DNA of 64,000 bases from a virus (IMGVR_UViG_3300025713_000004); one strand, 5' to 3'. Positions 2,091-64,000 are shown, counted from the first letter of the stretch. Made by a program: numbers and translations. The notes: a model not told the origin generated them from the letters alone.

Positions 2091-3299
2091 ATGGAATTTG
2101 ATACTGTTTGGGATAAATATGGATTTACAAATAAAATTTTATTATTAAGCAGGGGTGTTTGTTTATGGTGGACACCAAAAAATACAGCATCTTTTTTTAT
2201 TTCTAGGGTTTGTAAATGGTTAAAAAATAATACAAAATATAGAATAATAACAGCAACTGTTGACCCAGCAGCAGGTGAAATCGGAACAATTTATCAATCA
2301 TTAAATTGGTTATATGTTGGTGTTATGTCTGGTAATTATTCCAATAATAAAGAAACAAAAAGATTTTCAGTATTAATTGATGGTAAATTAAGATATAGTA
2401 GATGGGTTAGAAATAAATTGGGTACGATGAAAAAAAATGTTATTTTAAAACACTATCCCAATGCAATATTTTTACCACAATATAGAAAACATAGATATTT
2501 TTATTTTATAGACACACCAAGAAATAATAAAAAACATAAAACATCTATAAATCATTTAATATTACCATATCCTAAAAGAAATGATGAAATTATTGGCGTT
2601 ATTTATAAAATAAAAAACAAAATAAACAACAAATTATATATTGGACAAACAATTCGTTCAATAAATGAAAAAATATTAGAATATAAAAATGGTTTGGGTA
2701 ATGATTATATTAATAATGCATTCAATAAGTATGGTTGGGATAATTTTGAATTTACAATAATTGATACGGCAAAAACAATTCAAGAACTAAACAATAAAGA
2801 AATTAAATATATTAGTGATTATAAATCAAACCAAAAAGAATTTGGTTATAATATTGAAGGTGGTGGTAAAAATATAATACCAACAAAAGAAACTTTAGAT
2901 AAAATGTCTATTTCTCATTTAGGTATTAAACAATCTAAAGAATGGATTAATAAAAGAATTTCAAAAGCAGGTAGTAATGATGCAAAAAAATACGGTAGAA
3001 AAAAAACAAAGCAAGATAAATTAATTTTAAGTAAAAATTCTTCTAAATATTGGTTAGGTAAAAACCATACAGAAGAAACTAAACAAAAAATTAGTAAAAC
3101 AAAAAAACAAATTGGATTGTCTGAAAAACAAAAAGAAATAATTTGCAAAAAGGTATTTAAAGTTAATTTAAAAACTAATGAAATTATTGAATTTGAATCA
3201 ACAAAAAAGGCGAGTGTTTTTGAAAATGTTAATCAATCCACAATATCAAGATGGTGTAAAAATGAAAAAAGAGTAAATGGTTATTTATGGAAAAATTAA
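2091..3299 (+). CDS. GIY-YIG homing endonuclease with NUMOD3 / IENR1-like DNA-binding modules and an extra ~150-aa N-terminal domain of unknown function
   Basis: The central GIY-YIG core is GVIYKIKNKINNKLYIGQT...KYGWDNFEFTIID...NKEIKYI...FGYNIEGGG. C-terminal lysine-rich NUMOD3-like repeats (TKQKISKTKK, SEKQKEIICKK) and a terminal helix-turn-helix-like tail (NVNQSTISRWCKN) resemble I-TevI/Seg-type endonucleases. The N-terminal 150 aa (WWTPKN...RIITATVDPAAGEIGTIYQSLNWLYVG) is not part of a GIY-YIG fold I recognise. Confidence 0.7.
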   Translation: MEFDTVWDKYGFTNKILLLSRGVCLWWTPKNTASFFISRVCKWLKNNTKYRIITATVDPAAGEIGTIYQSLNWLYVGVMSGNYSNNKETKRFSVLIDGKLRYSRWVRNKLGTMKKNVILKHYPNAIFLPQYRKHRYFYFIDTPRNNKKHKTSINHLILPYPKRNDEIIGVIYKIKNKINNKLYIGQTIRSINEKILEYKNGLGNDYINNAFNKYGWDNFEFTIIDTAKTIQELNNKEIKYISDYKSNQKEFGYNIEGGGKNIIPTKETLDKMSISHLGIKQSKEWINKRISKAGSNDAKKYGRKKTKQDKLILSKNSSKYWLGKNHTEETKQKISKTKKQIGLSEKQKEIICKKVFKVNLKTNEIIEFESTKKASVFENVNQSTISRWCKNEKRVNGYLWKN

Positions 3300-3589
3300 A
3301 ATATTAGTGGTTTGAATATATAAGCAGGTTTACCTTATAAAAATTATTAATTTAACTAATATAATTTAATATCTCTTTATAATAAACATTTAGATAATAT
3401 TTTTAGAGTATATTTTTAATATTTCAAGAAATTTATTTTTAATATCATTTACATTAGATTCAATTAGTTTTAAGAATTTCTCTAACTTCATCAGATGAAT
3501 TCTTATATACTTCTTTTAAGGTTTTATTTGTTTCTTCCATCATTTAATTATTTTTATAATATACGATAAATAATTTAAATTGTTACAAA

Positions 3590-3862
3590 TTATTCAACAA
3601 AGTCAATTGTTTTAAAATTTTCCAATTCTAACGATAATTTTTCATAAATATCAATCAACTCATTTAATTTTTCATGTATTTTATACATAATATTAGCAAT
3701 TTGGTTAATATTTATATTTAATAAAAAGACATCATTATAAAAATCTATCCAATTATTATTTATTTTATATTGACCAATAAATGTTAAATTTTTTTCTATG
3801 GGATTAAATTTAACTAATATTCTTCTATCACTATATTTTTCAAAATTTACTTTCCATTCCAT
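3590..3862 (-). CDS. hypothetical protein
   Basis: A 90-aa ORF sits immediately upstream, in the transcription sense, of the helicase gene on the same strand. It has no recognisable motifs. Confidence 0.35.
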   Translation of the reverse strand: MEWKVNFEKYSDRRILVKFNPIEKNLTFIGQYKINNNWIDFYNDVFLLNININQIANIMYKIHEKLNELIDIYEKLSLELENFKTIDFVE

Positions 3863-3874
3863 AAATTTAAAATT

Positions 3875-6800
3875 TTAAGAGATATCTGTCCAATTTCTAT
3901 CAAAGATTAATTCATTTTTTGCTCTTGTATATGCAACATATTCTAAATTTTTTTCTTGTAAAAATTCCCAATTTTTTGTTGTTTTCATTGGTAATAAATC
4001 TGGTCTTATTATAAAGACCCTATTTGCTTCAAGACCCTTTATTTTATGTATTGTACTTAAGCAAATTCCTTGAATTTCATCACTAAAAATTAAACCAATT
4101 TTATTTTTTAAATCAACAATACTATTTGATAATTTTGCTAAAAAAAGTAATGTTGTTACTTTATCTTCTAATGTAACATAACCACTATGTTCATTTGGGT
4201 TTAAAATACCTTCCTTTTTTAATTCTTTTCTATATTTAATTAATTCTCTATCCCAAAAAAGAATTAAATTGTCAATAGATTTAATATCACCAATTAATTC
4301 AATTAACTGAACACCAATATCAGAACCTTTCACAATTGCTTTTTTTTCTTGTTCTAAAAATTCAAAAAATAATTTAATTAATGGTATTGTTGTTCTACAT
4401 AAAACAAAATCACCACTTTCTGCTTCTTTTAAAACATTACCATCCCTTACAATACCATCAGGTGCATTGGGTAGTGCTTTTATATCAGGTACAATTTCTT
4501 GTGCTTTTTTTATTACATTTTTTGAACATCTGAATGACGTTGATAATGGTAGTGTTTTAGTATTTGGGAATTTACTAAACCATTCAAACGCTTTTTCATC
4601 TGCTGCATTAAATCCATATATACAATTATGTGTTAATATATTATCAGCAACATATGTTTCGTATTTATCAATTTCTAAAGAATAAACTAAACCAGAATAT
4701 TTTTCATATTTTAATTCATATATTTTTTGAATGTTGTGCAAATTTGCATTTAAACTGCAAATTTGCATTAAATCTGGAATAATATTAATTGCATATATTT
4801 CTAAAAAATTTTGATTATAATCCATATTCCAATTAGAATTCCATATCGGGTAGTTTGAATTTTTATTAAAATCATTAAATATTTTATCTTTATTTGCTAA
4901 ATAATAATTAGCATCTTTATATGCATAATACAAAGAATAGTACGATTTTAAAATCCAAATTTTATTAACATCACTTTTATTCTTAAAAATTTTAAAAAAA
5001 TCAATCTCATTTCTTATTGTGAATATACGTATGTGTTGAGTTTCATCCATCAATTCAAACAAACACAATACAAATTGTAATTGTTTTGTTTTTTTTATTT
5101 TAACCAAACATTTATGTTCTGGTGTATATTTAGATTCACATCCTCTTGAAATTATTTTTATTAAATTTCCATTATAATACCTACAACCAATATTGTTAAT
5201 TTTACTTTTAATAAAGGAATTACTTTTTCTATCGTAAGAAATAATTAAATCACCAACATTTAAATTTTCAATATCCTTTTCTGTATTATCATTCATTAAT
5301 ATTTTTGTTCCTTTAGGTTGACATTGATAATAATCACCAACAGATATTAATCTACCTATATATTTACCAGTAGTTTTATCTTTTTTTATTAATTTTTCTA
5401 CAATTTTTATTTGACAACGATTTAAATCTTGAACTTCATCAATAAAAATATAATCTTGAGGAAACATCCAAATACTACTATCTATTGCTGGTAAATATAT
5501 CATATCAATAAAATCATAATTTTTTCTATCAATTGTTGATTCTTCTAATATTTTTAATATTCTTTTAATATCTTTATTTTCTTTAATTGGTATATTATAT
5601 TTTTCAGCAATATTTGGAATAAATTCTGAATTTGTTGTTAATGTTAATCTACATAAATTAACCATTTTTTTTATATTATTTAAATATAAAGAAATATCAT
5701 CGTTATCATCAAATTCATCGTTTAATTTCCAATTTTTTGATTTTGATTGTATTATTTTATCAATTTTAAATTCATCGAATTGTATTTTATCACCATATTT
5801 TCTTTTAATTGCAGACGTACCTAAACCATAAGTTGTATAACATCTAACATATTCGGGTAATTTTGTTTTTAATTCTTCTTGTATGTGTTTATTGAACGCT
5901 AAAAACATAATAGATTTATCTTTAGGTAATAATTTTACTGCATCAACTATGGTTGAAGTATTGTGTGTGATTGTAAAATCACCCAATAAAAATCTACCAT
6001 TACCATTTAAAGTAAATCCAAAATATAAACCTTGTGATATAATATTTTCTTTTATTTTAAAAGAAAATAAATTATTGTAATTTGTTTTTTGTTTTCTTTT
6101 ATATACTAAAGGTAATATGCTAGTATTTCCATTAATGTCAATTTTCCAAAAAATGTTATTTCGAAAAGAAAATATCTTTTTCTCTTTATATATAAAACCT
6201 AAACTTTCACATAAAAATTTCAAATTAACTATTTTCCTTTTTGAAATTATTGTTAGTTTGGATGTCCTGTTTTTTTTATTATAATAAACATCAAAAATAC
6301 CCGCCAAGATTTTTTTTCTATTTTCAATAGAATTTATTAGATATTTGTCTGGTATTGATAAATGAATATTCTTTTTGTTTTTATCAATATTAAAAATAAT
6401 ACACTTTTGAAAATCATCGGAATAAAAACCCTTTTCATATTTTTTATTTAAACAAACACTTGTTTTATTTAAAACAAAAAAAGAATTATCTTTTAACTCC
6501 AACAATTTTTCTATTATTTTTCTTGTTAACCTAAAATCGACAAATAAAAATTGTTTTATATTATTTTTTAAATTATATCCTAACCATAATCCTAATAAAT
6601 ATGGATTTATTTCTGTTTTATTTTCTTGAAATTCAACAATGGATTTTTTTAATTTAATATTTTTTAAATAACCATTCCATTTTTTTGAATATTTGAGTTC
6701 ATTTAGTGGTGTATCTAACAAAATTTTAGAAATTTCATTGTAATGTGTAATTACATGAACATCATTACAAACCCAAGAATATCCTATTTCATTTTTTATT

Positions 6801-7045
6801 TTATATAGTTTACCATATCCAATATTTTTATTCAATACTTTACGAGGCGATGAATCATCACCCATTAAAAAATCACCAATTTTTATATCTTGAACCCTTT
6901 TTATTGTTCCATCATACATCAATACTGGTGTATCATATCCAAGACATTTACCTGTACCAGCATATGCTTTTATTAAAATATTTTCAGGTCTTTTTTTTGT
7001 AAATAAAAATATTCTTTCTTGTTCTTTTGTTGGTTTATTAATCAT
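3875..7045 (-). CDS. SF1 DNA helicase (UvrD/PcrA/Rep-like) precursor interrupted by two inteins
   Basis: The extein sequence reconstructs a UvrD-family helicase. Motif I is AYAGTGK|T (Walker A), split after Lys. Motif Ia is TSTIVDAV. Motif II is IFIDEVQDLN (DExx). Motif III is VGDYYQ|CIYGFNAAD (compare GDxxQxIYxFRGA), split before Cys. Each break is occupied by an intein-like insert that starts with Cys and ends with ...THN followed by T or C. Confidence 0.8.
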   Translation of the reverse strand: MINKPTKEQERIFLFTKKRPENILIKAYAGTGKCLGYDTPVLMYDGTIKRVQDIKIGDFLMGDDSSPRKVLNKNIGYGKLYKIKNEIGYSWVCNDVHVITHYNEISKILLDTPLNELKYSKKWNGYLKNIKLKKSIVEFQENKTEINPYLLGLWLGYNLKNNIKQFLFVDFRLTRKIIEKLLELKDNSFFVLNKTSVCLNKKYEKGFYSDDFQKCIIFNIDKNKKNIHLSIPDKYLINSIENRKKILAGIFDVYYNKKNRTSKLTIISKRKIVNLKFLCESLGFIYKEKKIFSFRNNIFWKIDINGNTSILPLVYKRKQKTNYNNLFSFKIKENIISQGLYFGFTLNGNGRFLLGDFTITHNTSTIVDAVKLLPKDKSIMFLAFNKHIQEELKTKLPEYVRCYTTYGLGTSAIKRKYGDKIQFDEFKIDKIIQSKSKNWKLNDEFDDNDDISLYLNNIKKMVNLCRLTLTTNSEFIPNIAEKYNIPIKENKDIKRILKILEESTIDRKNYDFIDMIYLPAIDSSIWMFPQDYIFIDEVQDLNRCQIKIVEKLIKKDKTTGKYIGRLISVGDYYQCQPKGTKILMNDNTEKDIENLNVGDLIISYDRKSNSFIKSKINNIGCRYYNGNLIKIISRGCESKYTPEHKCLVKIKKTKQLQFVLCLFELMDETQHIRIFTIRNEIDFFKIFKNKSDVNKIWILKSYYSLYYAYKDANYYLANKDKIFNDFNKNSNYPIWNSNWNMDYNQNFLEIYAINIIPDLMQICSLNANLHNIQKIYELKYEKYSGLVYSLEIDKYETYVADNILTHNCIYGFNAADEKAFEWFSKFPNTKTLPLSTSFRCSKNVIKKAQEIVPDIKALPNAPDGIVRDGNVLKEAESGDFVLCRTTIPLIKLFFEFLEQEKKAIVKGSDIGVQLIELIGDIKSIDNLILFWDRELIKYRKELKKEGILNPNEHSGYVTLEDKVTTLLFLAKLSNSIVDLKNKIGLIFSDEIQGICLSTIHKIKGLEANRVFIIRPDLLPMKTTKNWEFLQEKNLEYVAYTRAKNELIFDRNWTDIS
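4625..5323 (-). other. Intein 2 (233 aa) in helicase motif III
   Basis: The insert begins CQPKGTKILM and ends ADNILTHN, followed by the +1 Cys of CIYGFNAAD. Removing it restores the UvrD motif III GDYYQ-CIYGF. Cys-rich stretches (GCRYYNGN...GCESKYTPEHKC) suggest a small embedded nuclease or zinc module. Confidence 0.65.
5960..6946 (-). other. Intein 1 (329 aa) in the helicase P-loop, carrying a LAGLIDADG homing endonuclease
   Basis: The insert starts CLGYDTPVLM (intein block A: Cys, four residues, Thr, any residue, a hydrophobic) and ends FTITHN immediately before the extein Thr that completes GTGKT. It contains two LAGLIDADG-type motifs (PYLLGLWLGYN, which is PI-SceI-like LLGLWIGDG, and KILAGIFDVYYN). 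Confidence 0.75.
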
Positions 7046-37706: not shown

Positions 37707-40700
37707 ATGGATATTAATTTACCTGAAAATAGTTCAAATTTAATAAGAAAAGATTATATTATTTATAATGATATAAATTATACTCTTGAAGAATTTCTTA
37801 ATGTAATTTTAAATTTAAATAATTTTGACAATAAAAATAATATCCATTATGGTGATGGTGTTTATACTTTTGATGAATTTATAAATTTTATATTATATAG
37901 AAATCTTAAAGAAAATAGATATAGTTTTGATTTAGATTATAAAGATTATGCTACATCAAGTGCTGGAAATTTATTTAGATTTAATAATGATACTAAATTA
38001 GGTAATTTTGGAAATGCACTTCTTGATGTTATACCTCAATATAATTCATTAAATTTATCAAATACTTTAATTGGTCGTGGAATTGATTTTGGATTATTTG
38101 GTAACATAACACCATTGGAAAGTATTGGTAGTGTTATGTTAGGTAAACAAATGACATTTAATGCTGTATCACAAGCAGCACGTACTACTGCCGATTATCT
38201 ACCAAGTATTAATATTCAAAATTTATTTACGAATGAACCAATTTTTAGTAAACCTGCTGATTATAGTATTACTAAATTAAATATTACTGGTTTTGATTTT
38301 GTTGATAATTTATTATCACCATCATTTTATAAATCACAACGTATTGATAGTAATTATGAACATATTATAAACGAAAATGAAATTGTTGATTATACAGGTA
38401 AAGGTCAATTAAATGAATTGTTTAGACAACTAAATTTTAATTTTTATAAATTTAATTCGTTATATGAATATCGTGTTAAATATAATATAAAAGGACAAAA
38501 AGATTTAATTGATGAATTGAAAGGAAAAAGATTTGATTTTTTTTATAATCCATATTCAATATTATATGGTTCTGATATGATTAAAACATATTCAGATAAA
38601 TTACCTGAAACATATGCTGGTGCAGAAGAATATGTTTCAGATATTCATGATATATCATTTTTTTATGGTAAAACAACTAATCAAGAGTTAACAGAAATTC
38701 CTAAAGATTTTATAACTAATTATGATTCTGAAGATGATATTCAAAATAACTTAATTTGGGGTAAGGATGGTGTTGGACAAATTGTACATTTTAATTTAGA
38801 TAATTCAAGGGATAAATATACAAAAGAATTAATTAATAATAATATTGAAAATTTCAAAATTAAAAGAGGTTTACTTGAATATACTAAAAATTTATTAAAC
38901 GTATCATCTGGTTTTTATGTTGATATGACCAAAAAAATATATAGAGATTTAAATAAAAGAATATATGGATTTAATGGTTCTCCTGTATGGGAAAAAGAAT
39001 TAACAAAATATTCATCAAAAAATTTTAAAGGTAGAAAAGAAGGTATTCGTCAGCATAATGCATTGGATAAATATGATAAATTTGTAAAGGCAATTAGGTT
39101 TGATGGTAATATAGCATATAATAAGAGTGGTAATAATAAAGATTCTGTAATATATAATTCAGTAATGCCAAAAATACATCCAATTAGAGATGATAAAGGA
39201 AATGTTGATAATAAAAACATGATGTTTAGCATTGAAAATCTTGCTGTTACTGCTGTTAAGGATGAATTAAATAATATTGGTTATATTGATGATGAAGATG
39301 GTTCTCAAATACCGATAAGTGAGGTAGGACCGTTCAACGGTCGTATTATGTGGTTTCCACCATACGGAATTGAACTTAATGAAACTTCAACAGCAAAATT
39401 TGACTCTACTGTTATGGTGGGTAGAAATGAACCAATATATACATATATGAATTCAGAAAGAAGTGCAACACTTTCTTTTGTTCTCCTTATTGACCATCCA
39501 CCTCATTTAATTAACTATATGGGTGAAGAAGAATATAAAAAGAAAATTGCTAATTTCTTTGCTTTTGGGGGTGATGATTATTATGAAGATAGTGTTAGTA
39601 TTAGTGATTTAACAAAAAGAATTGAAGATATAAAACAAGAAATAGATAATATAAAAAAAGATAATTTAATTAATTCTGGTGAAATAGTTGCTGATGGATT
39701 AAATTTAGAAAATTTACCTTCAATTTATTTTCCAAATGATTATCCAAAAGAAGGTGGGGTTTCAAATGTTATTGATTATATATATAATAATAAATATGAA
39801 ATAAGTAATAAAAATTCTACAATAGAGGGTGATGAAGGTAGTTCAGGATTAAATGACAATATATATGTTTTAAGTGCAGATACATCACAATATAATGCAA
39901 TTAATGAAAATTGTTTATTGAATAAGACATTAAAAGAAGTTTATGTTGATAATAATAATAAAAAGGTTATTGGTATTAAACTTGAAGGTTATGCATCAAG
40001 ACATGGTGATAATATAGATGGTTATAATACAATTTTGGTTGAAAGAAGACTTGAAGCAGCAAAAATTTTTATTTTAAAAAGATTAAATGCATTATTTCCT
40101 AATAATGATTTTGTTGATGAAGATATTTTTATTGAAATAGTAAATAAAGGTTCTAATTATAGTGATGATGTAGATGATAAAAATATTAATGAAGTAAAAG
40201 GTGATAGAAGGGTTGAATTAAGTTTTGTTCATAATGGAAAAACAATATCTGAAGATGGTACTGTTAGTGACAATCAATATGAATTAGAAATAAAAGAATT
40301 AGAAAAAGAATTAGAAAATTTATATACAACATTATATAGAGCAAGAAATAGAAAGGATAATATATTTACAGAAAGAACAAAAGAAGATAAAGCGATTTTT
40401 GATAATTTTGAATCAATAAAAACGAATCATTATAAACCCATGTATCATTCTCAAACACCAGAGGATTTTCATAAAAGATTAACGTTTTTACAGCAATGTA
40501 CTAGACAAGGTTCTTCAGTTAGAAATAGAAATATAAAAGATAAAGATAATTTAACATCAAAAAATTCAGTTTTTGGTAAGCAACCAATATGTATTTTAAG
40601 GGTTGGTGATTTCTTTTATACAAAGGTAATTATTAATAATGTTACTGTTGATTACAACGATACAACATGGGATATGAATCCTGAAGGATTTGGTATGCAA

Positions 40701-40955
40701 CCAATGATTGCAAAGGTTACATTACAAATGAATGTATTGGGTGGTCAATCACTGTCAGGACCTATCGATGCACTTCAAAATGCTGTATCGTATAACTATT
40801 ATGCCAATTCAACTTTTACTAATACAGGGATTTATAAAAAGGCAAGTAGAATTGCAAGGGAACAACAAGCATATTTTAAAGAAATAAAAAAGGATATTAT
40901 TGATAATATGAAAAGTAGATATAACGAATTAAAAACAAATAATAATTTATCATAA
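37707..40955 (+). CDS. large tail/baseplate-associated protein with an OmpA-like peptidoglycan-binding motif
   Basis: The 1082-aa protein sits between the tape-measure and gpX-like genes. The C-terminal third contains LEGYASRHGDNIDGYNTILVERRLEAAKIFILKRL, resembling the OmpA/MotB C-terminal signature (G.TD..G....N..LS..RA.AV...L). Confidence 0.45.
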   Translation: MDINLPENSSNLIRKDYIIYNDINYTLEEFLNVILNLNNFDNKNNIHYGDGVYTFDEFINFILYRNLKENRYSFDLDYKDYATSSAGNLFRFNNDTKLGNFGNALLDVIPQYNSLNLSNTLIGRGIDFGLFGNITPLESIGSVMLGKQMTFNAVSQAARTTADYLPSINIQNLFTNEPIFSKPADYSITKLNITGFDFVDNLLSPSFYKSQRIDSNYEHIINENEIVDYTGKGQLNELFRQLNFNFYKFNSLYEYRVKYNIKGQKDLIDELKGKRFDFFYNPYSILYGSDMIKTYSDKLPETYAGAEEYVSDIHDISFFYGKTTNQELTEIPKDFITNYDSEDDIQNNLIWGKDGVGQIVHFNLDNSRDKYTKELINNNIENFKIKRGLLEYTKNLLNVSSGFYVDMTKKIYRDLNKRIYGFNGSPVWEKELTKYSSKNFKGRKEGIRQHNALDKYDKFVKAIRFDGNIAYNKSGNNKDSVIYNSVMPKIHPIRDDKGNVDNKNMMFSIENLAVTAVKDELNNIGYIDDEDGSQIPISEVGPFNGRIMWFPPYGIELNETSTAKFDSTVMVGRNEPIYTYMNSERSATLSFVLLIDHPPHLINYMGEEEYKKKIANFFAFGGDDYYEDSVSISDLTKRIEDIKQEIDNIKKDNLINSGEIVADGLNLENLPSIYFPNDYPKEGGVSNVIDYIYNNKYEISNKNSTIEGDEGSSGLNDNIYVLSADTSQYNAINENCLLNKTLKEVYVDNNNKKVIGIKLEGYASRHGDNIDGYNTILVERRLEAAKIFILKRLNALFPNNDFVDEDIFIEIVNKGSNYSDDVDDKNINEVKGDRRVELSFVHNGKTISEDGTVSDNQYELEIKELEKELENLYTTLYRARNRKDNIFTERTKEDKAIFDNFESIKTNHYKPMYHSQTPEDFHKRLTFLQQCTRQGSSVRNRNIKDKDNLTSKNSVFGKQPICILRVGDFFYTKVIINNVTVDYNDTTWDMNPEGFGMQPMIAKVTLQMNVLGGQSLSGPIDALQNAVSYNYYANSTFTNTGIYKKASRIAREQQAYFKEIKKDIIDNMKSRYNELKTNNNLS

Positions 40956-60686: not shown

Positions 60687-60850
60687 AAATTTTATTAAAT
60701 TTTGTAACATTTTATAAAAATTATCGTATTTATATCTACAAATAATATTTTTCTAAAAATTTGCATTTTAATTTTTTTTATTTATCTTTGCAGTGATTAT
60801 TGAAGATATGTTCTTTTAAGATATGTAAACAGAAACTGGTTGTTAATACA

Positions 60851-60923
60851 GTACAATTAACTCAATGGATAGAGTGTTCATTCACAATATGAAATATTGT
60901 TGGTTCGATTCCAACATTGTAAA
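60851..60923 (+). tRNA. tRNA (73 nt), anticodon uncertain
   Basis: It folds as a cloverleaf: acceptor gtacaat/attgtaa with a G1.A72 mismatch; D-stem actc/gagt with a GG-containing loop; a perfect anticodon stem ttcat/atgaa with loop tcacaat; T-arm gttgg-ttcgatt-ccaac. The loop reads ACA at positions 34-36 but has C instead of the near-universal U33, so the identity is unsure. Confidence 0.45.
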
Positions 60924-60956
60924 AAAATAACAAACAAATTTTCTGTTTTTTGAAAT

Positions 60957-61042
60957 TGCGGTGTGGAGAAATGGTATCTCGCCTGCCTCATAAGCACGGA
61001 GTCCCTATTGGGTTTAAATGGGTTCGATTCCCATCACCGCTA
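60957..61042 (+). tRNA. tRNA-like gene with a CAU anticodon loop and a long (class II-like) variable arm
   Basis: Acceptor (t)gcggtg/caccgc(t). D-stem gaga/tctc. Anticodon stem cctgc/gcacg with one C.C mismatch and loop cTCATAa, giving anticodon CAT. A 19-nt variable region holds a ccc/ggg mini-helix. T-arm atggg-ttcgatt-cccat. A long variable arm combined with a CAU anticodon is atypical. Confidence 0.45.
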
Positions 61043-61066
61043 CAAAAAAACGTTCTTTATATAAAT

Positions 61067-61200
61067 GGGGAGTTAGCAAAATTAATACAAAAAATATTAT
61101 ACAATTACTTATTTGATATAAGAACTAATAGTATTTACAGTTAGGAAAATGCAATTGTTTTGGATACAATGATTTGTAGGTTCGAGTCCTACACTCCCCG
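61067..61200 (+). tRNA. tRNA-Pro(UGG) interrupted by a ~60-nt insertion in the D-stem/loop (intron-containing or disrupted)
   Basis: The 5' piece ggggagt-ta-gca (61067-61078) and the 3' piece agttaggaaaa-tgc-a-attgt-tttggat-acaat-gattt-gtagg-ttcgagt-cctac-actcccc-g (61139-61200) assemble into a canonical tRNA. The acceptor is a perfect 7/7 pairing, the anticodon loop is uUUGGau and the T-loop is TTCGAGT. The two pieces are separated by an AT-rich 60-nt insert (61079-61138). Confidence 0.4.
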
Positions 61201-61345
61201 CAGTTTGGGAAAACTAGAAATGTTTACAGTAAATATCGGTTCGAATCCGATATTATCCTACCATAATGGATAATTAGCCGAATTGGTTTAGGCACAAGTA
61301 GTTTAAACTTGCAAAAAAAGAAAATATTTCTAAACTATTCCCTTT
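61201..61345 (+). ncRNA. circularly permuted tRNA-like module, candidate Y RNA (YrlA-like) partner of the downstream Ro60-like protein
   Basis: The order is the reverse of a tRNA. First comes the T-arm atcgg-TTCGAAT-ccgat (61235-61251), then the acceptor 3' strand attatcc (61252-58), then a 9-nt closing loop taccataat. The acceptor 5' strand ggataat (61268-74) gives a perfect 7/7 pairing. Next come ta, the D-arm gcc-gaattggttta-ggc and an anticodon-like hairpin caagt-agtttaa-acttg (61295-61311). The flanks (about 61207-61221 and 61326-61342) can pair imperfectly, with bulges, to close the molecule through the variable-region position. Confidence 0.4.
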
Positions 61346-61496
61346 TTTATAGAAGAAGAACTGGATGTATTTTCAGTAATATGTGCAAATATATTTACAA
61401 AAAAATATAACCAAGTTACTTCTTTTTTTTTGCTTTTTTTGTAACATTTTTTAAATACATTCGTAAAATATATTATAATTTTAAATTGGTTTAATT

Positions 61497-63143
61497 ATGG
61501 AAAATTTAGTTTTAACCCAAAAAATGTTGGGAACTATTAAACAAACTTTAATTGATGGTCTTACTGTTGCATCTGGTAGTAAGAGTAGTGCGACTTATTA
61601 TCATAGTAGGGATGAACAGATTGTTGCAATTCGAAAAGAAATTAATAAAATGTATAAGATTTCAAAAGAATTGCCACTTTTAATTGCATGTCAGAAAGGT
61701 GTTACAGGAAAATTTATTTCTGAAGTATTATTAAATGAATTTAAAAATACTTCAAGGGGTGGTGCTTGTAATATTATAAGCCCAATTGATTGGTATGATA
61801 ATGGTTTATCTGATAAAGCAATTTTAATTGCTTTGAATAATTTAAATATTGATAATGGAATACCATATGTCTTTAGATTATTTCAAGATTTGAAAATTAA
61901 TAAAATTAATAATGAAAGGTCAAGAAAATTTGTTTTAGGTTTTATTTGGGGGCAGGAAAATCTTGAATTTTATTGTTTAAAATATCGTAATAAAATTGCT
62001 AAAATTTTTAAACATGTATATGGTGAAAAAATGATATCTATTTTATTATCAATTGGAAATAAACTACTTTTAACTGATAATAATCAAATTATACTAACAC
62101 CAAAAGAACATGGTATTTTAAATAGTTTAGTTTTAAAGTATTATAATGGTGATTTGATTAAAGCCATAAAATTATTGTTTTTTATTTTCAAGAAAAAACA
62201 AGATGTTGATTTGTATAGTGATGTTAATGATTTTCCATTAATTAGTGAATATCAAAAAGCAAAAATTGATATTAGTGATATAAAGAAAATACCAGAAGAA
62301 GTATTAATTGGTTTGATTTCTGATATTAAACATCCACAATATCATGTTTTATGGTCTAATAAAGAACAAAGAGAATCTACTAAAGCGTTAATTCGTAAAA
62401 ATGTGGAAGTTACATCAATTAATCAACAAGTTCGTCAAACAAAATCTAATGTTAAATTGGGTGTAGATAAAACTGTTGATTTAAATAAGGCAACTGATTT
62501 TCTTGCATTATATAAAACAGGATATGAAAATGGTTTTAGTTTAGAATTAACAAATGCAATTGATAATCTTGCTAATAAAAGAAAAATAAAGGATTTTTAT
62601 TACACAAATATTGGTATTATTCAAGATGATAGTATTTCAATGACAGGTAATAAAATTGAATCAAAAAATACTCCAAGAGCAATTGTTGATTTTACTGCTA
62701 AAGTATTGTCAAAATCAGTAACAAATCATGTTGTTGTAAAAACTAAGGATATTTTTACTGATTTGGGTAGTTCATTTATTGAACTATTAAAAAAGAATGA
62801 AACATCTAATTTACAATATGATGCTATTTTTATATTAACCGATGGATATGAAAATATTTATGATGGGTTATTGAATGAAATTATTGATGTTTGGAAAATT
62901 GAAACAGGTATTGATATTCCAATATTTCAAATTTCCCCAATAACAAGTGCTGAAATGGATTCTAATGTTAGAAAAATTGGTGATAATGTTATTACAATGG
63001 CAGTTAATAACCCAATTGCAATTCAACCACAAATTTCAGCAAGATTACTTGAAATTGACACTAAGCGTTGGTTGGAAAATCAAGTTCTTATGCTTGAAGA
63101 ATCTAATTTAAGTCGTATTAATAAAATTAATGTTAATAACTAA
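61497..63143 (+). CDS. Ro60/Rsr-like protein (TROVE-sized N-terminal region plus C-terminal vWA domain with MIDAS)
   Basis: The 548-aa length fits Ro60 (about 540 aa). The C-terminal vWA has MIDAS IIQDDSISMTG (DxSxS) and downstream AIFILTDGYENIY (hhh.TDG), the same placement as the Ro60 vWA. The N-terminal 360 aa is helical-repeat-like, as expected of TROVE. tRNA-like/Y-RNA-like genes lie immediately upstream. Confidence 0.5.
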   Translation: MENLVLTQKMLGTIKQTLIDGLTVASGSKSSATYYHSRDEQIVAIRKEINKMYKISKELPLLIACQKGVTGKFISEVLLNEFKNTSRGGACNIISPIDWYDNGLSDKAILIALNNLNIDNGIPYVFRLFQDLKINKINNERSRKFVLGFIWGQENLEFYCLKYRNKIAKIFKHVYGEKMISILLSIGNKLLLTDNNQIILTPKEHGILNSLVLKYYNGDLIKAIKLLFFIFKKKQDVDLYSDVNDFPLISEYQKAKIDISDIKKIPEEVLIGLISDIKHPQYHVLWSNKEQRESTKALIRKNVEVTSINQQVRQTKSNVKLGVDKTVDLNKATDFLALYKTGYENGFSLELTNAIDNLANKRKIKDFYYTNIGIIQDDSISMTGNKIESKNTPRAIVDFTAKVLSKSVTNHVVVKTKDIFTDLGSSFIELLKKNETSNLQYDAIFILTDGYENIYDGLLNEIIDVWKIETGIDIPIFQISPITSAEMDSNVRKIGDNVITMAVNNPIAIQPQISARLLEIDTKRWLENQVLMLEESNLSRINKINVNN

Positions 63144-63156
63144 AAAAAATTATACT

Positions 63157-64000
63157 ATGAATACAAGAGAATTTTCAGAATTATTAAAGGGTTGTCGTCC
63201 ATTAAAAGATATGGATGGTAATATCATCGTTCAATCTATTATGAATATGCAAATTGTTTGTTTAACAACGGATAATGAATATTCATTAGATAATCGATTT
63301 GGAAATCCTTTAACATCAATCAAATCAAGTAATTCAAGTTATGGTCAAATGAGTTTTGTGAATAGTAATGATAAAGAAATTATTATACCAACACAAATGG
63401 CTGTTATGACCAAACAAGTTGCTCAAAATCATGGTATGATTAAAGCGGGTTATGTTGAATCTTATGGAAATACTACTTATCATGATGCTGGTTGTGTTCA
63501 AGGTAGTCAAGGTGGACATTTTAAAAATACTTCTGAATTTAGAATGATTCCTGTAACAATGCGTGAAATGTTATTTGATAGTATTGGTAAAAGTGGTGGA
63601 TATCCAAGAATTTATCCTGCAATTAATAAATTGGGTAATGATACTAATTCAAATACGGGTAATTATCTTGATAAGTATTTTGATAAGTACGATAAAAAAC
63701 TTGAACAGTTTATTGCTCATTTTGAAAGACCAAAAAATTTAATTGGCGTTATTGTACTTATTGATGGTGAAATTGTTGCTATTGATAAATTTCCATCATT
63801 TACGTATGCAGAACAGGTATGGAATTTAATGATTCGTGATTGTTACGGTTCTTTGGCTATTATTTCAGAATTGAAAAAGAAAACATCAAAGATTGATTTC
63901 TATACAACATATCAAAATATGAAAACTAATCATAATGGTAATGTTGTTGAATTACTTGAAAAGGTTTTGAAAAAAACTAAAGAAACAATTACTTTAAATG
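63157..64000 (+). CDS. hypothetical protein (5' part; the ORF runs off the window end)
   Basis: An ATG at 63157 opens a frame that stays open for more than 280 codons to the window end. That length is improbable by chance in this stop-rich AT genome. No recognisable motifs. It is co-directional with and immediately downstream of the Ro60-like gene. Confidence 0.45.
   Translation, partial: MNTREFSELLKGCRPLKDMDGNIIVQSIMNMQIVCLTTDNEYSLDNRFGNPLTSIKSSNSSYGQMSFVNSNDKEIIIPTQMAVMTKQVAQNHGMIKAGYVESYGNTTYHDAGCVQGSQGGHFKNTSEFRMIPVTMREMLFDSIGKSGGYPRIYPAINKLGNDTNSNTGNYLDKYFDKYDKKLEQFIAHFERPKNLIGVIVLIDGEIVAIDKFPSFTYAEQVWNLMIRDCYGSLAIISELKKKTSKIDFYTTYQNMKTNHNGNVVELLEKVLKKTKETITLN

Follow-up and report, generated by a model that had tools for sequence, protein, structure and literature searches.

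Particles composed of the Ro60 protein and Y RNAs show conservation all the way from bacteria to humans; what they do in bacteria is known for a few species only. In the bacterial Y RNA YrlA, encoded on the same strand as Ro60 and within 4 kb of it, T-arm, acceptor and D-arm follow one another in this order (PMC4201824). Covariation of the Levitt pair was used to argue that YrlA is a tRNA mimic (PMC4201824), and the crystal structure of YrlA has since shown the pair (10.1101/312249). Phages also carry Ro60: the protein has been described with upstream Y-like RNAs in 22 phages (PMC4201824), jumbo phages carry ROT/TROVE proteins (PMC7824862), and the Ro60 protein of Thermus phage phiLo binds the upstream RNAs Yrl1 and Yrl2 and recruits the PNPase of its host (PMC12135203). 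Matches to canonical Ro60 were found in 353 GenBank phages, with names such as 'Ro-like RNA binding protein' in the records listed. We analysed a locus in 64,000 nt of DNA from the virus IMGVR_UViG_3300025713_000004 (the whole stretch, hereafter the window), in which a circularly permuted tRNA-like RNA precedes, on the same strand, a gene for a 548-aa Ro60-like protein, itself followed by a gene of the ARPP-1 domain family. Because phage Ro60 with upstream Y-like RNAs was already established, this is not a new kind of system, and an earlier interpretation made from the DNA sequence alone (the sequence-only reading) overstated the case in holding that such modules are not normally considered part of phage biology.

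We consider it probable, though with appreciable doubt, that the locus encodes a deeply divergent ribonucleoprotein module of the Ro60/Y-RNA type. The structure and conservation of the RNA, the predicted Ro60-like fold of the protein with an intact MIDAS (metal ion-dependent adhesion site) in its vWA domain, and a linkage that joins RNA, Ro60-like gene and ARPP gene in phages as well as three bacterial phyla are established. The sequence-only reading is supported in its main lines, but missed both the ARPP partner gene and the reuse of the RNA stem as a module. Relative to the literature searched (Burroughs & Aravind 2016 and Sim et al. 2020 lie outside it), the divergent protein family, its pairing with ARPP, its residence in tRNA arrays and the modular permuted RNAs appear to be new.

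The locus resembles the bacterial Rsr/YrlA systems (PMC4201824, 10.1101/312249) in its protein, predicted to combine a ring of helical repeats with a MIDAS-bearing vWA domain; in its RNA, which lies on the same strand a few kb upstream and has the order T-arm, closed acceptor stem-loop, D-arm; in the conserved T-loop and D-loop nucleotides, the covarying Levitt pair and the pairing of the 5' and 3' ends in a bulged stem; and, as at Rsr loci, in the occurrence of several Y-like RNAs per locus, one of them short and without tRNA body (cf. YrlB). It differs in that the TROVE (PF05731) and Ro60-vWA (PF25045) models miss the phage protein, in that the motif GNCGAAN0-1G is only partly kept, and in that an ARPP gene follows the Ro60-like gene, unlike at three canonical phage Ro60 loci inspected. 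Moreover, the terminal stem of YrlA replaces the anticodon stem, whereas here a closed arm of 5 bp and 7 nt is kept and the stem leaves from the variable region. The YrlA-type architecture proposed by the sequence-only reading therefore stands for the order of T-arm, closed acceptor and D-arm and for the Levitt covariation, but not for the anticodon-like arm and the exit point of the stem. A covariance model of the present RNA (R1, see below) scores the YrlA-type unit of Mycobacterium phage Alice at 11.4 bits (E 0.41), and the two RNA families have the tRNA-like core in common but not the stem. The Alice unit (L143 2660-2785, L numbers denoting the loci compared; JF704092 127083-127208) lies under two tiny annotated coding sequences, gp218 and gp219, which are probably mis-annotations of the RNA gene.

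With the phiLo system (PMC12135203; PDB 9KOP, 9L5Y) the locus shares a phage Ro60 of low identity to cellular Ro60 and Y-like RNA genes directly upstream, of which phiLo has two. Unlike the present protein, however, phiLo Ro60 is still annotated as a TROVE-domain protein and has no ARPP partner, and its Yrl RNAs are described as stem-bulge-stem structures with a CGAA bulge, not as tRNA-shaped chimeras.

A conserved, structured, tRNA-shaped RNA

Positions 61207-61342 (+) of the window encode a conserved, structured, tRNA-shaped RNA (Table 1). The sequence-only reading had described here an element containing all tRNA arms and their invariant nucleotides in circularly permuted order; every one of these features is present in the sequence, and the unconstrained minimum free energy (MFE) structure obtained with RNAfold has exactly this five-helix layout (-33.3 kcal/mol, z = -3.3, with 1 of 200 shuffles as good). 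The 9-nt acceptor loop and the 7/7 complementarity of the strands that it joins (61252-61274) were confirmed, and the flanks, expected to pair into an additional helix, form two (61207-61225 / 61322-61342). Counted from its T-run, the RNA ends 149 nt upstream of the Ro60-like open reading frame (ORF) and on the same strand, in agreement with the first estimate of about 150 nt.

ARAGORN called only a tRNA-Cys(ACA) and a tRNA-Met(CAT) in the whole 64-kb window and did not resolve 61200-61350 into ordinary tRNAs. Two adjacent ordinary tRNAs were considered and rejected, because the acceptor strands pair with each other across the 9-nt loop and ARAGORN is silent there; no upstream acceptor partner is present either. 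A permuted transfer-messenger RNA (tmRNA) was rejected as the identity of the element, since ARAGORN reported no tmRNA in the window. The Y-RNA family match that might have been expected from Rfam did not appear: the permuted element matched no Rfam family, short slices included, and the Rfam matches were the two tRNAs and a partial tRNA at 61139-61195. A scan for promoters and terminators detected nothing terminator-like on the + strand, a split terminal helix followed by a U-run being outside the scope of the scanner, and gave no convincing promoter ahead of the RNA genes; its best promoter-like match (10/12) falls at 61450-61479, immediately before the ORF.

Table 1. Features of the locus and settings in which the terminal-stem module occurs (window coordinates unless a locus is named).
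Feature	Position	Strand	Sequence or basis
Circularly permuted tRNA-like RNA	61207-61348	+	sequence, MFE fold, alignment and covariation, covariance model R1
Scaffold helix 1 (terminal stem)	61207-61211 / 61338-61342	+	GGGAA / TTCCC
Asymmetric internal loop between helices 1 and 2		+	AAC / AACTA
Scaffold helix 2 (terminal stem)	61215-61225 / 61322-61332	+	TAGAAATGTTT / AAATATTTCTA
T-arm of permuted RNA	61235-61251	+	ATCGG/TTCGAAT/CCGAT
Acceptor 3' strand	61252-61258	+	ATTATCC
9-nt loop closing the acceptor	61259-61267	+	TACCATAAT
Acceptor 5' strand	61268-61274	+	GGATAAT, 7/7 complementary to the 3' strand
U8-A9	61275-61276	+	
D-arm	61277-61293	+	GCC-GAATTGGTTTA-GGC, with A14 and G18G19
A26		+	between D-arm and anticodon-like hairpin
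Anticodon-like hairpin, 5 bp/7 nt	61295-61311	+	CAAGT-AGTTTAA-ACTTG
T-run (U-run) after 3' strand of helix 1	61343-61348	+	
tRNA-like gene 1	60827-60951	+	normal-order cloverleaf; ARAGORN tRNA-Cys(ACA) 60851-60923; Rfam tRNA, 48.5 bits
tRNA-Met(CAT), 87 nt, long variable arm	60957-61043	+	ARAGORN; Rfam 47.5 bits
Type d tRNA-like RNA	61067-61200	+	acceptor GGGGAGT/ACTCCCC, T-arm, anticodon-like arm; Rfam partial tRNA, 25.7 bits; MFE fold
Ro60-like protein, 548 aa	61497-63143	+	contains DDSISM and ILTDGYEN
Predicted all-helical TROVE-like ring	N-terminal ~360 aa		
C-terminal vWA domain	~aa 365-535		MIDAS D377-x-S379-x-S381 ... [S/T]448-D449-G450
ARPP-1 domain protein	63157-64000, ORF runs off window end	+	Pfam PF20208, 46 bits vs cut-off 27
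Module setting (a)	window		around permuted body
Module setting (b)	L061 3312-3450; L078 3650-3782; window 60827-60951 (degenerate)		around normal-order cloverleaves, acceptor stacked on module
Module setting (c)	L063 2753-2892		closed hairpin at variable-arm position of non-permuted RNA with open acceptor
Module setting (d)	window 61067-61200; L063 3017-3150; L069		closed hairpin in D-loop
Module setting (e)	L077 3262-3352		alone, without tRNA body; z -4.2

With nhmmer, the RNA was found upstream of the protein gene and on the same strand at about 65 of 80 viral loci, and the 44 distinct sequences were aligned (A3). RNAalifold predicted 35 pairs from A3, 24 of them with compensatory changes. 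In a pairing count, 98.3% of cells are paired, as against 41-53% when the partners are slid, and changes on both sides occur in 25 of 36 pairs; the observed values were reached by none of 500 shuffles. Covariation supports five helices and extends to all 7 acceptor pairs, 3 T-stem pairs, 2 D-stem pairs and all 5 pairs of the anticodon-like arm. The Levitt pair 15:48, here formed by the nucleotide before the T-stem and D-loop position 15, covaries as well (G:C in 36 and A:U in 8 of the 44 sequences, never broken). In tRNA, the L-shape is held by this pair. Conservation also extends to the invariants of T-loop and D-loop, in the GGTTCGAATCC and G18G19 columns. All copies possess the bulged terminal stem, in which an asymmetric internal loop of 3-5 nt / 5-6 nt separates helices of 5 bp and 9-11 bp; CGAA is found in the bulge of 15 of the 44, the distant phage locus L076 has GACGAAG, and the window copy reads AACUAGAAAUG. 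The anticodon-like loop is 7 nt long throughout, with A37 in 41 sequences, U33 in 29 and G33 in the window copy, and takes 25 different forms around a consensus C-U-N-U-U-A-A (A3 columns 121-127, window 61300-61306); by its sequence it is not a decoding loop.

With the covariance model R1, the window copy reaches 136 bits and the close relatives searched, each of which has a same-strand upstream match, reach 132-171 bits; the distant phage loci L073, L076 and L077, where protein identity is 25-27%, still score 79-83 bits. In relatives the RNA lies 0.15-1.5 kb upstream of the protein gene, on the same strand. Elsewhere in the 64-kb window R1 gave two weak matches only, both inside the same tRNA island, and some of its matches in tRNA arrays (e.g. 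L107 7100-7232) are artefacts of adjacent tRNAs and were discounted. An independent detector, set to recognise T-arm, closed 7-bp acceptor hairpin and D-arm where no acceptor partner lies upstream, returned 55 + strand units and 3 - strand units over all loci, and placed a unit at most 2 kb upstream of the gene in 66 of 81 viral and 14 of 45 cellular loci.

The Ro60-like protein and its ARPP neighbour in phages and bacteria

Homologues of the 548-aa protein number in the hundreds, on contigs of up to about 360 kb, and an exhaustive profile search yielded 349 clusters at 50% identity, nearly all of 500-550 aa. Among 60 diverse members that were aligned (A2, identity as low as 21%), D377, D449 and G450 are invariant and S379 and S381 (>=90%) as well as Y451-E452-N453 nearly so, the MIDAS motif being complete. 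A structure model built from A2 reached pLDDT 91.4 and pTM 0.90, an earlier one from close homologues having been poor. The Ro60-like character proposed by the sequence-only reading is borne out by Foldseek, in which all 11 matches with E<=1e-3 are Ro60 structures aligned over their full length (483-584 columns, probability 1.0); structures other than Ro60 match the vWA domain alone, over at most 170 residues. The predicted fold fits a closed ring of helical (HEAT-like) repeats capped by the C-terminal vWA domain. When A2 was compared by hhalign with a Ro60 alignment (A4, consisting of Rsr homologues that all carry PF05731 and PF25045, plus human Ro60 checked against PDB 9nen), the vWA domain and the preceding helix aligned with 94.8% probability (E 5e-8); against human Ro60 alone, the vWA domain only was aligned. 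As modelled, the protein has the architecture of Ro60 while failing the sequence definition of the TROVE family, and it is probably a very distant Ro60 homologue. Precomputed Pfam annotation is empty for all its close relatives, it has no match in NCBIfam, PHROGs or PADLOC, and tblastn against GenBank phages gave a single distant match, in an unannotated 462-kb uncultured phage. One other window protein searched, that of ORF 37707-40955, had no match among GenBank phages.

The ARPP ORF begins 14 nt past the stop codon of the Ro60-like gene. ARPP was also matched at L012 (45 bits) and L077 (65 bits, with ARPP-2 matched as well), and a hidden Markov model built from three such ORFs located an ARPP-like ORF immediately after the Ro60-like gene in 78 of 81 viral loci, the contig ending at this point in the other three, and in 56 of 62 cellular loci. 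The latter come from a scan of one genome per species, show 23-30% protein identity, and include complete chromosomes of Minicystis rosea, Stieleria magnilauensis, Novipirellula and a Phycisphaerales metagenome-assembled genome (MAG). The sole 65% match, L081 (JBAZIW010000001.1, 362,763 bp), is in a 'Candidatus Paceibacterota' MAG; it agrees with the IMG/VR huge-phage contig L032 in length and coordinates, carries the phage module, and is probably a phage genome mis-binned into a bacterium of the candidate phyla radiation.

At many of the cellular loci, in Planctomycetota and Myxococcota, ARAGORN showed tRNA genes crowded on one strand into large arrays, with 38 tRNAs in 9.4 kb at L087, 24 each at L100 and L107, 22 at L092 and 20 at L083. 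A permuted tRNA-like unit often lies just upstream of the gene pair in these arrays, for example in Minicystis rosea (L087) and a member of the Pirellulaceae (L091). In the cellular copies that were folded, a two-helix terminal stem with the motifs (G)GGGAAC ... CAGUGA encloses anticodon-like hairpin, T-arm, closed acceptor and D-arm, the break point falling between D-arm and anticodon-like arm (position 26), and the motif GGG(G)AAC ... CAGUNA recurs in copies from Myxococcota and Planctomycetota. At L087, ARAGORN also reports a 'tmRNA*' (3686-4236) that extends into the 5' part of the Ro60-like gene; in all likelihood the permuted unit at 3734-3838 gave rise to this call, which would then be false. 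In the Planctomycetota loci L090, L093, L097, L098, L100, L102, L105, L108 and L113, a tRNA-Cys(GCA) and a second tRNA lie about 250-400 nt before the gene, and the second tRNA switches identity from one species to another (Lys-CTT, Lys-TTT, Leu-TAG, His-ATG or Asn-ATT). The cellular loci are like tRNA gene arrays in general, which are dense, same-strand, interspersed with accessory genes and homing endonucleases, and linked to translational stress and RNA repair; by contrast, the passages on arrays that were searched list HNH, RtcB and DpsA neighbours but no Ro60-like/ARPP pair or permuted units.

Iyer et al. 2022 (PMC9503650) described ARPP, in which a Cys and a Gln are conserved, as a likely enzyme of ARG/rhodanese-phosphatase systems, where a vWA protein is often present too; they make no mention of a Ro60-like ring linked to it. 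The present locus resembles those systems in that an ARPP-1 gene stands beside a vWA gene in a conflict or mobile-element setting, and the ARPP gene is its one invariant neighbour. It could thus be argued, although we hold this to be decidedly unlikely, that the protein pair is an ADP-ribose/NAD-linked conflict module unrelated to the RNAs, with the vWA domain as a peptide-binding chaperone for ARPP, a role proposed for ARG-centred systems, and the tRNA linkage as a product of co-mobilisation in tRNA arrays and phage tRNA islands. Arrays of tRNA genes are indeed horizontally mobile and collect accessory genes and homing endonucleases (PMC8421152), and mobile insertions break up the otherwise tight module here too: at L012 a KilA-N gene (3160-3990) separates the Ro60-like gene from the RNA genes, and a homing endonuclease of HNH/NUMOD4 type (5644-6210) separates it from ARPP. 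Unlike a generic vWA accessory, however, the protein aligns over its N-terminal 360 aa with the Ro60 ring, and its context is one of tRNA genes and tRNA mimics; among the neighbours scanned at a few loci (the window, L012 and L077) there is no ARG, rhodanese-phosphatase, Macro, Nudix or WYL component. Because a permuted unit with the same motifs, scaffold motifs included, recurs directly upstream in phages, Myxococcota and Planctomycetota at about 25% protein identity, hitchhiking does not readily explain the linkage.

The remainder of the window is that of a large tailed AT-rich phage, with tail sheath, glycosyltransferase, UvrD helicase and TnpB genes, and a DnaB-like helicase, a 5'-3' exonuclease and a RecA-like protein are encoded just upstream of the RNA island. 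The UvrD-type helicase ORF (3875-7045, -; 1056 aa) contains two intein/Hint modules (Hom_end_hint at aa 34-87 and Intein_splicing at aa 583-807), and the TnpB-like protein (808-2076, +) combines OrfB_IS605 with a Cas12f1-like TNB domain.

The terminal stem as a module in other tRNA-like RNAs

The terminal stem is a conserved, reusable module joined to tRNA-like bodies. Several weaker full-length matches of R1 aligned the terminal stem only, around a different interior, and inspection revealed one and the same module throughout, with GGGAAAAC-nn-AAAGUGUUU-ACAGUAA as its 5' strand and ACAACAAAUACUUUU-AAAUUA-UUCCC as its 3' strand; helix 1 is followed by the asymmetric internal loop with AAC (often AACGAA), helix 2 and UUACAGUAA. 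The module was met in five settings (a to e, Table 1), of which (c), in a sister clade, is a circular permutation of (a). At L069 2764-2910 the open-acceptor layout of L063 was found again, with a long variable-region insertion that was not resolved into the module. Because the cellular copies break between D-arm and anticodon-like arm, besides the phage settings, one stem module and a tRNA body are combined in at least four junction topologies. The points of insertion (D-loop 16/17, variable region and acceptor end) are places where an extra helix leaves the tRNA L-shape intact.

The tRNA island announced by the sequence-only reading is present, with the correction that it holds a third tRNA-like gene, the type d RNA, in whose D-loop a closed scaffold hairpin (~58 nt, about 61085-61142) is inserted just before G18G19. 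Type d has 48 distinct homologues, with up to three paralogues per locus, and compensatory changes in 22 of 32 consensus pairs. Gene 1 gave a weak full-length R1 match, and in its MFE fold the cloverleaf is surrounded by a degenerate leader/trailer helix (AAACAGAAA 60827-60835 / TTTCTGTTT 60940-60948) followed by a T-run. At L031, L047, L054, L061, L062, L064 and L072 the corresponding slot was called Leu-CAA, Asp-ATC, Asn-GTT, Tyr-GTA, Arg-CCT or Thr-CGT, so that the anticodon of gene 1 is hypervariable among relatives, the rest of the gene and the flanking helix being conserved. A CAT tRNA was called in most relatives scanned; the long variable arm of the window copy is unusual for Met or Ile2 tRNAs, and homologues elsewhere measure 72-89 nt. 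At L080, a permuted unit of T-arm, closed acceptor and D-arm (204-281) immediately precedes an ARAGORN tmRNA (305-660, tag GENMPLQEAA), the two lying some 3.5 kb upstream of the Ro60-like gene.

Acceptor loops beginning with N-CCA in 28 of the 44 homologues, as if a mature 3' end were encoded, raise the question of whether the RNAs are precursors of real tRNAs. The permuted gene and the insertions in D-loop and variable arm would then be disrupted tRNA genes and the scaffold a processing element, excised with joining of the ends as happens in permuted or intron-containing tRNAs of Cyanidioschyzon and archaea; alternatively, RNase P and 3' trimming would open the acceptor to give a two-piece tRNA. 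The Ro60-like/ARPP pair would be a maturation or quality-control factor. The 7-bp acceptors recall that of M. smegmatis YrlA, which is cleaved by RNase P (PMC4201824; 10.1101/312249), and the constant 7-nt loop with its frequent A37, the acceptance of several scaffold-embraced bodies as tRNAs by ARAGORN, and the residence of the gene pair in tRNA arrays all fit a precursor. Permuted tRNA genes of Cyanidioschyzon merolae and archaea (PMC3978253) likewise place the 3' half before the 5' half, with a short acceptor loop and paired termini. Those genes, however, yield decoding tRNAs through bulge-helix-bulge cleavage, circularisation and end processing, whereas no bulge-helix-bulge motif (3-nt/4-bp/3-nt) was found in the terminal stem or at the scaffold junction here, the stem having just one asymmetric internal loop. 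The lack of U33 in the window and its incomplete retention among the 25 loops, the conservation of the scaffold sequence beyond that of a mere spacer, its existence without a tRNA body at L077, and insertion points that are all compatible with an intact L-shape argue in the same direction, and no Pfam match to an RNA ligase or splicing endonuclease was found among the neighbouring ORFs scanned. We therefore regard a precursor role as unlikely.

Hypervariable anticodon-like loops within an otherwise conserved RNA would also be expected of stand-alone decoys or sponges for tRNA-targeting nucleases (anticodon nucleases, VapC-type toxins), whose loops diversify and for which the protein would be at most a stabiliser. 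The commonest loop, CUCUUAA, is the anticodon loop of tRNA-Lys(CUU). The classical target of the PrrC anticodon nuclease is tRNA-Lys. The tRNA slot before the gene switches identity in Planctomycetota as well, and a role as sponges for toxin RNases has been suggested for the tRNAs of arrays (PMC8421152). Decoys acting alone are nevertheless very improbable in our estimation: the conserved scaffold, the strict linkage to a Ro60-like ring and ARPP, and the scaffold-only RNAs would all be left unexplained, and a decoy function is compatible with a Ro60/Y-RNA-type module, not exclusive of it.

Proposed function and implications

If the locus encodes a Ro60/Y-RNA-type ribonucleoprotein, the 548-aa protein would be a Ro60-like ring, made of TROVE-fold helical repeats and a MIDAS-bearing vWA domain, and the upstream RNAs its Y-RNA-like partners, each consisting of a scaffold and a tRNA-shaped body. 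Ro60 holds Y RNA on the outside of its ring and the 3' ends of misfolded RNAs in the central hole. By analogy with its contact to the bulged Y-RNA stem, the present protein may bind the scaffold, leaving the L-shaped tRNA mimic to recruit, or compete for, factors that recognise tRNA, such as host nucleases, modification and repair enzymes or anticodon nucleases. The MIDAS site of the vWA domain could hold the adjacent ARPP, a predicted enzyme thought to act on ribose moieties, and so bring it to tRNA or tRNA-like substrates. Since the gene pair sits inside bacterial tRNA arrays, the module would most likely serve the quality control, protection or repair of tRNAs when translation is under stress or phage and host are in conflict. 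RNA binding by the protein, contact between MIDAS and ARPP and a tRNA-directed function are the parts of this scheme that we infer.

Several observations weigh against a Ro60/Y-RNA-type module. The bacterial Ro-binding motif GNCGAAN0-1G is kept in part only, CGAA being absent from the window copy. The comparison with TROVE and vWA profiles suggested by the sequence-only reading turned out negative: the window protein has no TROVE or vWA Pfam match, and TROVE was matched by 0 of the 60 diverse members. Neither phmmer nor the 60-sequence profile matched anything, Ro60 included, among PDB sequences, and the Foldseek TM-scores to Ro60 are just 0.30-0.48. The N-domains compared on their own by hhalign gave a weak alignment (E 0.003, probability 11%), collinear and centred on the TROVE signature ('...LAlqAVKYkqR' vs '...LE.WAVKYR.K'). 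With the strict detector, 31 of 45 cellular loci showed no permuted unit and ordinary-looking tRNAs upstream instead, and conserved synteny among phages that are 57-72% identical is not independent evidence. Finally, the canonical phage Ro60 loci of Mycobacterium phage Alice, Sinorhizobium phage Phosso and Streptomyces phage Genie2 have no ARPP-sized neighbour; the link to ARPP therefore points beyond the Ro60 paradigm.

It is tempting to speculate further that ring, ARPP and scaffold-tRNA-mimic RNAs form a tRNA-directed repair or de-modification machine carried by tRNA arrays and huge phages, in which the scaffold docks on the ring and the MIDAS docks ARPP. This specific proposal is doubtful. 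If it were true, ARPP would act on the ribose of damaged or modified tRNA, with ADP-ribosylated, 2'-phosphorylated or anticodon-loop-cleaved molecules as substrates, the interchangeable anticodon-like loops would set or decoy specificity, and the repeated permutation, together with module swapping, would make this non-coding RNA family one of the rare documented examples of domain shuffling.

Current domain models do not see the large Ro60-like family, whose 349 clusters come from huge phages, Planctomycetota, Myxococcota and Bacteroidota, and surveys based on TROVE annotation therefore undercount the Ro60 system. With ARPP there is a concrete candidate for what the MIDAS site of Ro60, long unexplained, may bind, and the pairing offers a testable biochemical context for ARPP itself. 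The chimeras of stem module and tRNA body, in their four or more topologies, represent a natural experiment on the evolution of Y RNAs from tRNAs. Because the same protein pair also sits inside bacterial tRNA arrays, the locus appears to belong to an unannotated branch of the Ro60/Y-RNA system, and this residence ties Ro60 biology to the function of tRNA arrays and to phage counter-measures against tRNA-targeting defences.

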